Positions 44,583 to 48,974 of a stretch of 64,000 nucleotides of DNA are shown here, piece by piece. Every line of letters starts with the position of its first letter. Position 1 is the stretch's first letter. A model generated the notes under the pieces. It worked only from the letters and a program-made list of their open reading frames with translations. It searched no databases and was not told the DNA's origin. The position numbers and the translations under genes are program-made. Location of the stretch: the NCBI RefSeq assembly GCF_988243305.1, contig NZ_OZ547136.1. One strand, given 5' to 3'.

Positions 44583-45358
44583 TTTGCCGTTTTATCGACA
44601 CCCACTGCCATTTTGATTTCCCGCCGTTTAGTGGCGATGAAGAGTCCAGCCTGCAACGCGCGGCACAAGCGGGCGTAGGCAAGATCATTGTTCCGTCAAC
44701 CGAGGCGGAAAATTTTGCCCGCGTGCAGGCGTTAGCGGAAAAATATCAACCGCTGTATGCCGCATTGGGCTTGCATCCTGGTATGTTGGAAAAACATAGC
44801 GATGTGTCTCTTGATCAGCTACAGCAGGCGCTGGAAAGGCATCCGGCGAAGGTGGTAGCGGTGGGGGAGATCGGCCTGGATCTCTTTGGCGACGATCCGC
44901 AATTTGAGAGGCAGCAGTGGTTACTCGACGAACAACTGAAACTGGCGAAACGCTACGATCTGCCGGTGATCCTGCATTCACGGCGCACACACGACAAACT
45001 GGCGATGCATCTTAAACTCCACGATTTGCCGCGCTCTGGCGTGGTTCATGGTTTTTCCGGCAGCCTGCAACAGGCCGAACGGTTTGTACAGCTGGGCTAC
45101 AAAATCGGCGTAGGCGGTACTATCACCTATCCACGCGCCAGTAAAACCCGCGATGTCATCGCAAAATTACCGCTGGCATCGTTGTTGCTGGAAACCGACG
45201 CGCCGGATATGCCGCTCAACGGTTTTCAGGGGCAGCCTAACCGCCCGGAACAGGCCGCGCGGGTGTTTGACGTGCTTTGCGAGTTGCGTCCGGAACCAGC
45301 GGATGAGATTGCGCAAGCGTTGCTAAATAATACGTATACGTTGTTTAACGTGCCGTAG
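44579..45358 (+). CDS. yjjV: TatD-family metal-dependent deoxyribonuclease YjjV
   Basis: 259-aa ORF with the HCHFD motif; overlaps the yjjU stop by 4 nt. Confidence 0.9.
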   Translation: MICRFIDTHCHFDFPPFSGDEESSLQRAAQAGVGKIIVPSTEAENFARVQALAEKYQPLYAALGLHPGMLEKHSDVSLDQLQQALERHPAKVVAVGEIGLDLFGDDPQFERQQWLLDEQLKLAKRYDLPVILHSRRTHDKLAMHLKLHDLPRSGVVHGFSGSLQQAERFVQLGYKIGVGGTITYPRASKTRDVIAKLPLASLLLETDAPDMPLNGFQGQPNRPEQAARVFDVLCELRPEPADEIAQALLNNTYTLFNVP

Positions 45359-45360
45359 GC

Positions 45361-45445
45361 CGGACAAGGCGTTCACGCCGCATCCGGCAGTTGGCGCACA
45401 ATGTCTGATGCGACGCTTGACGCGTCTTATCAGACCTACAAGTCT
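45361..45445. repeat. REP (repetitive extragenic palindromic) element(s)
   Basis: CGGACAAGGCGTTCACGCCGCATCCGGCA ... GCCGTATCCGGCATG are canonical REP-type palindromes between convergent yjjV and yjjW. Confidence 0.55.
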
Positions 45446-45474: not shown

Positions 45475-46338
45475 TTACAAATACAGCGCCGGGAATATTA
45501 AGCGGCTCACCCCGCGCTCCCGTAACGCATCAGCCAACGGCTCAACGTCTTCCGGCGTGGCGCTCGCCCAGCTTTGCGCCTCGCCATACACGCCGTGGGC
45601 ATGAAACGCGTTCAGGCGTACCGGAACATCGCCGACTCCCTTGATAAACGCCGCCAGTTCTTCGATGTGTTGCAAATAATCCACCTGGCCAGGGATTACC
45701 AGCAAACGCAGTTCCGCCAGCTTACCGCGCTCTGCCAGCAAACAGATGCTGCGCTTAATCTGCTGATTATCGCGTCCGGTTAATTGCTGATGACATTCGC
45801 TCCCCCACGCTTTGAGATCGAGCATTGCGCCGTCGCACACCGGGAGCAATTTTTCCCAGCCGGTTTCGCTCAACATACCGTTACTGTCCACCAGACAGGT
45901 GAGATGGCACAATTGCGGATCGTTTTTGATGGCAGTAAACAGCGCCATCACAAACGGCAGCTGGGTCGTGGCTTCGCCGCCGCTTACCGTTATCCCTTCG
46001 ATAAACAGCACTGCTTTGCGGATATGACGAAGCACTTCGTCCACGCTCATCAATTGCGCCATCGGCGTGGCGTGTTGTGGACACATCTTCAGGCAGGTAT
46101 CGCACTGCTCGCAGACTACAGCGTTCCACGCCACTTTGCCGTCAACAATCTGCAACGCCTGATGCGGACACTGTGGCACGCACTCCCCGCAATCATTGCA
46201 ACGTCCCATCGTCCACGGATTGTGACAGTTTTTGCAGCGCAGATTGCAGCCCTGCAAAAACAGAGCCAGACGACTGCCTGGCCCGTCAACGCAGGAGAAG
46301 GGGATAATCTTACTGACTAAAGCGCATCTGCTGTTCAT
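45475..46338 (-). CDS. yjjW: Glycyl-radical-enzyme activating enzyme-like radical SAM protein YjjW
   Basis: 287-aa ORF with the CxxxCxxC radical-SAM motif plus ferredoxin-like Cys clusters. Confidence 0.9.
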
Positions 46339-47860
46339 GGCTTATCACGCGCGGCTGGCGTTCCAGAATACGAGTGTTGCGTGCGGCCTCTTCGCCCAGC
46401 CAGGTGGTGTTGGTGCGTGAACCTTCGGCGCGATATTTTTCTAAATCCGACAAACGCACCATATAACCGGTAACGCGAACCAGATCGTTACCGCTGACAT
46501 TGGCGGTAAATTCACGCATTCCGGCTTTAAAGGCACCGAGGCAAAGCTGTACCAGCGCCTGCGGGTTACGTTTGATGGTTTCGTCGAGCGTCAGAATGTC
46601 GCTGATGCCGGAATAATAATAAGCATGATGCGGGGCGACAGTTTGCAGATGGGTGATCGGATCTGGCTCATCGCCATACGGCAAACGCGCGCCCGGCGTG
46701 GTGCCGATATCGGAACTGATCCCCGACTGTGCGTGTAACATGGCGCGTTTTTGCCAGCCATATTTCACGGGGGTATTGGCGACAAACTCCGCCAGTTGCG
46801 CGCTGATGCGATAACCCACTTCATTTGCGGCGGCTTCTTTACCGTAGCGCGCGGCAATCCCTTCTTTCTCACACAGTAAGTTAACTGCTTCCGCCAGCCC
46901 ATACATGCCAAACATTGGCACAAAACGTTCAGGGTTAATCAGCCCTTCTTTCACCAGGAAGCTATTCTCAAAGAAGTGTGATTGTTGATAGAGGAATTCA
47001 CACCGCGCATCGATGATGGCGATCTGCTGCTGGCAGTAGTGCGGTAGAGTGCGCGTAAAGAAGTCATCCAGCGATTCGCTGCGCTCGGCAATGGCTTTCA
47101 GGTTAAGGCGTACCAGCGTGCTGCCACCACCCGCCAGCGGCAGTGAGTTGTAACAGCTCACAATCCCGTAGCCCCCTTTTGTGAAAATTTTATCATGCAC
47201 CGGACCGTTGGCGATGTGCGGTTTGCTACATTCACAGATGTTCTTCGCCACTTCCAGCAGCAGGTCATCAGGGGTGATTTCAGGATCGTAGATAAAGGTC
47301 AGGTTCGGTGAAACCTGCTTCAGCTCTGCATCTGCACGTAAGATTGCACGGGTGATGGGCGAATCAGACGGGCCGATATTGGCGTGCATAAAGGCGTCTG
47401 GCAGGGTTCTGTCGAGGTAACGCCAGAAACGTTTTATTCGAATATCGATCTCGTCTTGTGTTAGAATTCTAACATACGGTTGCAACAACGCATCCAGTTG
47501 CCCCAGGTAGACCGGCATCGATGTGACCGACGGTACGTGGTGGTAAAGAATGGTCAGCAGAGAGAGTGCATCATCAAGATCTTTCGCGCCTTCCAGCTCC
47601 AGCCATTCGGAACCGTTCGCCAGAAAACGGGCGTAATCGGGTAAGACATAGCGCGGTTTGTACGGCGCATGACCTTCAAACATATCGCAGATTACACCCT
47701 CATCCAGCGCGCGGCGGGCTTCGGCAGGAAGCTGCGGATAAGGCAGATTGTTTTCTGCTTCCAGTGCCAGAAAATGGCGCTTCTGCTCCGGGCTAAGCAC
47801 TGGGCTGGTGACAATTTGCAGGCAACGTTGTTGCAGTGCATTTTCATGAGAAGTGGGCAT
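46310..47860 (-). CDS. yjjI: DUF3029 glycine-radical-enzyme-like protein YjjI
   Basis: 516-aa ORF matches recalled YjjI; overlaps yjjW by 29 nt. Confidence 0.9.
47458..47473. promoter_or_regulatory. DeoR operator-like perfect palindrome TGTTAGAATTCTAACA (candidate deo O1 / P1 region)
   Basis: Perfect 16-bp palindrome matching the DeoR operator consensus, exactly 600 bp upstream of a second copy. Lies inside the yjjI coding region. Confidence 0.55.
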
Positions 47861-48057
47861 CTTCTTTTCCTTTTATGCCGAAGGTGATGCGCCATTGTAA
47901 GAAGTTTCGTGATGTTCACTTTGATCCTGATGCGTTTGCCACCACTGACGCATTCATTTGAAAGTGAATTATTTGAACCAGATCTCATTACAGTGATGCA
48001 AACTTGTAAGTAGATTTCCTTAATTGTGATGTATATCGAAGTGTGTTGCGGAGTAGA

Positions 48058-48073
48058 TGTTAGAATACTAACA
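48058..48073. promoter_or_regulatory. DeoR operator-like palindrome TGTTAGAATACTAACA (candidate deo O2 / P2 region)
   Basis: 15 of 16 positions match the DeoR palindrome; about 45 nt upstream of the deoC start. Confidence 0.55.
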
Positions 48074-48117
48074 AACTCGCAAGGTGAATTTTATTGGCGA
48101 CAAGCCAGGAGAATGAA

Positions 48118-48897
48118 ATGACTGATCTGAAAGCAAGCAGCCTGCGTGCACTGAAATTGATGGACCTGACCACCCTGAATGACGACGACACCGACGAGAA
48201 AGTGATCGCCCTGTGTCATCAGGCCAAAACTCCGGTCGGCAATACCGCCGCTATCTGTATCTATCCTCGCTTTATCCCAATTGCTCGCAAAACGCTGAAA
48301 GAGCAGGGCACCCCGGAAATCCGTATCGCTACGGTAACTAACTTCCCACACGGTAACGATGACATCGACATCGCGCTGGCAGAAACCCGTGCGGCAATCG
48401 CCTACGGTGCCGATGAAGTTGACGTAGTGTTCCCGTACCGTGCGCTGATGGCGGGTAACGAGCAGGTTGGTTTTGACCTAGTGAAAGCCTGTAAAGAGGC
48501 TTGCGCTGCGGCTAACGTACTGCTGAAAGTGATCATCGAAACCGGAGAACTGAAAGACGAAGCGCTGATCCGTAAAGCGTCTGAAATCTCCATCAAAGCG
48601 GGTGCTGACTTCATCAAAACCTCTACCGGTAAAGTGGCAGTGAACGCGACGCCGGAAAGCGCGCGCATCATGATGGAAGTGATCCGTGATATGGGCGTAG
48701 AAAAAACCGTTGGTTTCAAACCGGCGGGCGGCGTGCGTACTGCGGAAGATGCGCAGAAATATCTCGCCATCGCCGATGAACTGTTCGGCGCTGACTGGGC
48801 CGATGCGCGTCACTACCGCTTTGGCGCTTCCAGCCTGCTGGCAAGCCTGCTGAAGGCTCTGGGCCACGGCGACGGTAAGAGCGCCAGCAGCTACTAA
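48118..48897 (+). CDS. deoC: Deoxyribose-phosphate aldolase DeoC
   Basis: Start at [24 protein letters not shown] (259 aa). Confidence 0.95.
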
Positions 48898-48974
48898 GGC
48901 TTGATTTGCCGGATGACGCAGCGATGCTCATCCGGTTCCCCGATTACCTCGTCTCTTTTCCACGGGAGGTTACC

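Follow-up and report, generated by a model that had tools for sequence, protein, structure and literature searches.

The DeoR operators of deoCABD and their overlap with the divergently oriented yjjI gene

Two palindromes resembling the operator of DeoR are located approximately 600 bp apart upstream of deoC, and the more distant one falls into the open reading frame of yjjI on the opposite strand. This arrangement raises the question whether the palindromes represent O1 and O2, the operators known from deoCABD, whether the yjjI coding sequence and the deo regulatory DNA indeed overlap, and what such an overlap would entail for either transcription unit. Here, these questions are addressed by analysis of the entire 64-kb stretch of DNA harboring the locus, referred to as the window; all coordinates are positions therein.

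Identity and arrangement of the DeoR operators

Of 5426 complete E. coli genomes, 5423 contain a match to the region from position 46300 to 48900, with an identity of 95-99% and with yjjW, yjjI and deoC as the annotated genes, and the window is collinear with the yjjW-yjjI/deoCABD region of E. coli K-12 (Table 1). Alignment with yjjI/deoC of K-12 strain MG1655 is gap-free with 99% identity, and both palindromes are unchanged. Twelve single-base differences were found within 1031 bp; none affects O1, O2 or the site O_E described below, and one is present in each of the two CRP sites (GATCTC versus GATCGC and TGTATA versus TGTGTA, respectively). Operator sequences, the O1-O2 spacing of 599 bp, the distance of 279 bp to O_E, CRP/CytR sites and neighboring genes are all shared, and the deo regulatory region does not differ substantively from that of E. 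coli K-12. Outside this region, the deoC-deoA spacer (48898-48974) is about 49 bp shorter than in MG1655 and comprises one REP-like hairpin as compared to two in K-12. Moreover, the yjjV-yjjW spacer contains a match to the Rfam family naRNA4, a REP-derived nucleoid-associated RNA (75.7 bits, 45358-45436).

Table 1. Genes, operators and regulatory elements of the yjjW-yjjI/deoC locus (positions in the window)
Feature	Position	Strand	Basis or remark
yjjW, glycyl radical enzyme activase	45475..46338	-	overlaps the yjjI 3′-end by 29 nt
yjjI, YjjI-family glycyl radical enzyme, 516 aa	46310..47860	-	ORF and family models
O_E, candidate third DeoR operator, TGTGAAAATTTTATCA	47180..47195	.	12/16 match; position; synonymous conservation
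Putative deoP1 upstream region (-35 and A/T-rich stretch)	47423..47449	+	low third-position entropy; role assigned from distance to -10
O1, DeoR operator, perfect 16-bp palindrome TGTTAGAATTCTAACA	47459..47474	.	identical to published DeoR palindrome (PMC5326754)
Putative deoP1 -10 hexamer TAGAAT, preceded by TG at 47459-47460 (extended -10)	47462..47467	+	analogy with P2
Predicted yjjI promoter	47894..47934	-	phylogenetic footprint, 19 genera; tentative assignment
deoP2 distal CRP site TTTGAACCAGATCTCA	47972..47987	.	conserved block in spacer alignment of 19 genera
deoP2 promoter-proximal CRP site TGTGATGTATATCGAA	48025..48040	.	ETEC CRP ChIP-seq motif; conserved in 19 genera
O2, DeoR operator, TGTTAGAATACTAACA	48058..48073	.	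identical to published palindrome (PMC5326754)
deoP2 -10 TAGAAT within O2	48061..48066	+	read from sequence
deoC, deoxyribose-phosphate aldolase, first gene of deoCABD	48118..48897	+	followed by deoA, deoB, deoD

When compared to the 16-bp palindrome TGTTAGAA.TTCTAACA, O1 shows no mismatch and O2 a single one, and the flanking bases G47458 and T47475 do not lengthen the O1 palindrome. Both sites are letter-for-letter identical to the two DeoR-binding palindromes quoted as "TGTTAGAA-TACTAACA or TGTTAGAA-TTCTAACA" (PMC5326754), which substantiates the match to the DeoR operator claimed in the preliminary description of this DNA. Of the two positions given there, 48058 is exact, whereas 47458 is one base too low, as O1 starts at 47459. 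The start-to-start distance thus amounts to 599 bp (48058 - 47459), the very spacing published for O1 and O2 (PMC3334521) and in line with the roughly 600 bp that had been noted before and with the layout of the tandem deo promoters (PMC8053113); deoC starts 45 nucleotides past O2. With at most one mismatch to TGTTAGAAWWCTAACA, O1 and O2 are the sole matches in the 64 kb. Since none of 100 dinucleotide-preserving shuffles yielded any match at this threshold, the two sites are not expected by chance.

Allowing up to four mismatches to the perfect palindrome revealed exactly three sites in the window, namely O1, O2 and a third one at 47180, which had escaped the preliminary description. The distance of the third site is 279 bp to O1 and 878 bp to O2. 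Its 12/16 match is not significant alone, as about 1.8 sites with four or fewer mismatches are expected per window. Distances of 279 and 878 bp were reportedly given for the operator O_E by Dandanell et al. in 1987. OE is placed about 300 bp further upstream than O1 (PMC8053113). Based on its position, on this secondary citation and on the conservation described below, we consider the site a candidate for O_E. It corresponds to yjjI codons 222-227, CAT GAT AAA ATT TTC ACA (HDKIFT), and shares its codon phase with O1 inside yjjI (279 bp equal 93 codons). An internal duplication of YjjI as the cause of this common phase was rejected, as no similarity was found outside the sites. Taken together, we are highly confident that these elements are the deoCABD operators O1 and O2 of E. 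coli, joined by a weaker third operator O_E 279 bp upstream of O1.

Promoters and the mechanism of repression

O1 and O2 both begin with TGTTAGAAT, an extended -10 element, and the hexamer TAGAAT is present within either site. At deoP2, this -10 hexamer would place the transcription start at approximately position 48073, relative to which the promoter-proximal and the distal CRP sites are centered at -40.5 and -93.5, respectively, in agreement with the published CRP positions of deoP2. Because the same 9-mer at P2 gives a start that fits the CRP positions, the -10 element of deoP1 was assigned by analogy, with a putative start around 47474. The deoP1 upstream region sits in yjjI codons 138-146 and includes the rare codons CGA141 and ATA142. 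A scan with the sigma-70 consensus called neither P1 nor P2 because of their weak -35 elements; its only match, the minus-strand sequence TGATAAAAT inside O_E, was not read as a promoter. A search of Rfam revealed no match to an RNA family, neither for the P1 leader nor for the intergenic region.

For yjjI/deoC of ETEC, the motif reported from CRP ChIP-seq is the sequence TGTGATGTATATCGAA (PMC4287617). In the alignment of 19 genera the distal CRP site is followed by a conserved ATGCAAA-type CytR region, and the CytR/CRP architecture of deoP2 has been described (PMC3454398). A further sequence in the yjjI reading frame, TGTGACCGACGGTACG at 47523-47538, is identical to the motif reported for a CRP ChIP-seq peak within yjjI of ETEC H10407. 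We rejected this site as a part of the conserved system, as codons 110-113 show a third-position entropy of 1.6-1.8 bit and hence free synonymous variation; the motif is probably fortuitous or lineage-specific.

Operators identical to those found here are bound by DeoR in K-12, looped, and released by deoxyribose-5-phosphate (PMC8053113, PMC5326754). Looping by DeoR at deoP1/O1, deoP2/O2 and O_E goes back to Dandanell & Hammer 1985, Valentin-Hansen et al. 1986, Dandanell et al. 1987 and Amouyal et al. 1989, as they are cited in PMC8053113 and PMC5326754. [quoted passage not shown] The tandem promoters deoP1 and deoP2 have their -10 elements (TAGAAT) within O1 and O2, respectively. According to this literature, multimeric DeoR binds the distant operators O1, O2 and O_E simultaneously, loops the intervening DNA and thereby shuts both P1 and P2. 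Deoxyribose-5-phosphate frees DeoR and leads to induction, and CRP and CytR add a further layer of control at deoP2.

Overlap of O1 and O_E with the yjjI coding sequence

O1 spans nucleotides 386-401 of yjjI and coincides with codons 129-134, TAT GTT AGA ATT CTA ACA (YVRILT). Its nearer edge thus lies 386 nucleotides inside the gene, in good agreement with the approximately 390 bp originally estimated. On both strands, the two alternative frames of the perfect palindrome are interrupted by TAG and TAA, and it can therefore be coding only in the frame observed. The family models TIGR04040 (residues 11-504, 787.8 bits as compared to a cut-off of 498.3) and Pfam PF11230 (residues 22-504, 732.6 bits) cover YjjI over its full length, above the curated cut-off, including the region carrying O1 and O_E. 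Moreover, orthologues with an identity as low as 65% show conservation of residues 1-134. In view of the family models and of this N-terminal conservation, the start of yjjI is not located downstream of O1, and the overlap of O1 with the yjjI coding sequence is real, as the preliminary description had maintained.

A mis-annotated start, with the true gene beginning past O1 and hence no overlap, is most improbable. No positive support for it was found, although the first eight residues vary between genera. Against it, the two models align from residues 11 and 22, the invariant blocks KPRYVLPDY and HHVPSVT precede codon 129, the alignment of the intergenic region shows a conserved ATG preceded by a conserved GGAA Shine-Dalgarno sequence, and the next in-frame methionine is residue 158.

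A promoter of deoCABD has been described as lying "in an upstream gene, yjjI" (PMC6389913, 2019), which the preliminary description had not taken into account. The overlap of O1 with yjjI is therefore already in print and the operators are textbook knowledge; as such, the finding is correct, known and ordinary. Among the papers searched, none analyses what the overlap means for yjjI.

The footprint of the operators in yjjI was followed by comparison of orthologues. To this end, one genome per species was scanned for YjjI loci, which returned 80 loci, and the third-codon-position entropy was determined in six-codon windows for 79 distinct sequences from species with yjjI next to deoC. Codons 129-134 display the lowest synonymous variation in yjjI, ranking first among 511 windows with 0.045 bit as compared to a whole-gene mean of 1.15 bit, where the aligned species are related and conservation counts are not independent, and the freely varying flanking codons serve as the control. 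In the same comparison, codons 222-227 of the O_E candidate rank third of 511, and the entropy is likewise low in codons 138-146, which carry the -35 and upstream region of P1. At loci adjoining deoC, the nucleotides of O1 are identical or show 1-2 differences at YjjI identities down to 74%. Rare codons cluster in O1/P1 (AGA131, CTA133, CGA141 and ATA142); within yjjI, just 2 of the 33 arginines are encoded by AGA and 2 of the 57 leucines by CTA. Low third-position entropy was also observed at the 3′-end of yjjI, where the gene overlaps yjjW by 29 nucleotides (46310-46338) and synonymous variation is strongly reduced in the last nine codons, consistent with the overlapping start of yjjW.

The gene yjjI is oriented divergently from deoC-deoA at every locus that reaches far enough upstream, from Escherichia to Hafnia/Edwardsiella, with the exception of Proteus; in Providencia, yjjIW is likewise located away from deoC. 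Sites equivalent to O1 and O_E are absent from both Proteus and Providencia, where the codons equivalent to O1 read TATGTGGGTGAGCTCACC and TACGTTGCAAATTATACT (YVGELT, YVANYT). Since the codons are frozen next to deoC and the sites are absent from these two genera, the constraint acts on the DNA and is tied to deo adjacency rather than to the protein.

Alternatively, the intragenic palindrome could be a by-product of yjjI coding, with its conservation reflecting needs of the protein or the mRNA instead of DeoR and deoP1. Y129, V130 and T134 are indeed conserved residues of the family, so that some of the conservation resides at the protein level. However, the rare codons GTT, AGA, ATT, CTA and ACA are frozen while neighboring codons vary freely, the orthologues away from deoC differ in amino acids as well as in codons, and O1 equals an experimentally defined, published operator (PMC5326754). 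We thus assign next to no probability to a coding origin of the palindrome. The codons of yjjI that coincide with the deo operators are under a dual constraint, and with deoP1, O1 and O_E embedded in the divergent gene they carry two kinds of information.

O2 is conserved upstream of deoC in other genera as well, partly in a degenerated form. In Kluyvera, Yokenella, Pseudocitrobacter and Pluralibacter it has deteriorated to four mismatches (TGTTACAATAGTCACA or TGTTAAAATAGTCACA; loci L050, L054-L056, L060, L061, L063-L066, L068, L072 and L080), and the coding-embedded O1 is perfect or nearly so in the species with a degenerate O2. In Hafnia and Edwardsiella, no site resembling O2 could be found in the vicinity of deoC. 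The distance between O1 and O2 forms classes of 567-568 (7 species), 589-592 (6 species), 596-604 (61 species) and 612 bp (1 species; loci L002-L080). The classes differ by about one or three turns of the helix, suggestive of a preserved helical phase, with few independent indels underlying the comparison.

Auxiliary operators within coding sequences are known from lac O2 in lacZ and gal OI in galE. Like these, deo O1 is a site for a looping repressor inside an open reading frame with doubly constrained codons. The lac and gal operators, however, reside past the promoter within a gene of the very operon that they control, whereas in deo a complete promoter-operator pair, P1/O1, and O_E are located in a divergent, functionally unrelated gene, with P1 firing antisense to it.

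A predicted yjjI promoter and possible consequences for yjjIW

Across 19 genera, the conserved blocks of the yjjI-deoC spacer comprise O2, both CRP sites, the CytR region, the heptamer TTGATCC and a TGTA core. The latter two delimit a predicted yjjI promoter. Its putative -10 element TACAAT reads from 47899 to 47894 (TGTA core at 47896-47899), and the FNR-like site TTGATCCTGATGCG at 47921-47934, of which the part TTGATCC (47921-47927) is invariant, matches 7 of 10 positions of the FNR site TTGAT-N4-ATCAA, which class II promoters carry centered near -41.5. The TTGATCC half-site and the TACAAT element are 21 nucleotides apart and both conserved in the 19 genera; judged by their sequence, they resemble a class II FNR promoter that would start around 47887. 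For yjjI, expression dependent on FNR and an FNR ChIP peak, located about 25 bp away, have been reported in a study that lists no mapped start site for the gene (PMC3688515). The predicted promoter falls within the O1-O2 interval, head-on to deoP1. The preliminary description, which was right about the overlap, had missed this predicted promoter within the loop.

This arrangement permits an extension of the looping model in which yjjIW, too, would be regulated by the deo elements within yjjI. When bound to O1 and O_E, DeoR could block elongating polymerase in yjjI, the O1-O2 loop would enclose the predicted yjjI promoter, and transcription from deoP1 would run antisense across the first 386 nucleotides of yjjI and across its promoter, which could cause transcriptional interference. 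The geometry, with a predicted FNR-dependent promoter (start around 47887) facing deoP1 between O1 and O2, speaks for such a regulation, as does the divergent yjjI-deoC arrangement kept, except in Proteus, in every locus long enough to show the upstream gene. On the other hand, the sole co-regulation reported for yjjI is that with FNR and anaerobic genes, and the overlap itself may force the conserved synteny. We therefore regard a regulation of yjjIW by the deo elements as possible but doubtful. Somewhat less probable still is a joint reading, in which DeoR and deoP1 serve a double duty, deoxynucleosides gate yjjIW, the overlap locks yjjIW to deo, and the substrate of YjjI is nucleoside-related.

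The deo operators are among the systems in which repression over a long distance by DNA looping was first established, and finding them again adds nothing new. The modest gain is a comparative one: P1/O1 and O_E constitute the clearest nucleotide-level footprint across yjjI, and the rare codons frozen in 79 species, together with the absence of the sites away from deoC, represent a clean natural case of regulatory information overprinted on coding sequence. In addition, the analysis flags yjjIW as a candidate for cross-regulation by DeoR/deoP1. If this were true, the overlap may have fixed yjjIW beside deo across the Enterobacteriaceae and Hafniaceae, the availability of deoxynucleosides could gate the uncharacterised glycyl radical enzyme YjjI, and the arrangement may hint at a nucleoside-related substrate of this enzyme.
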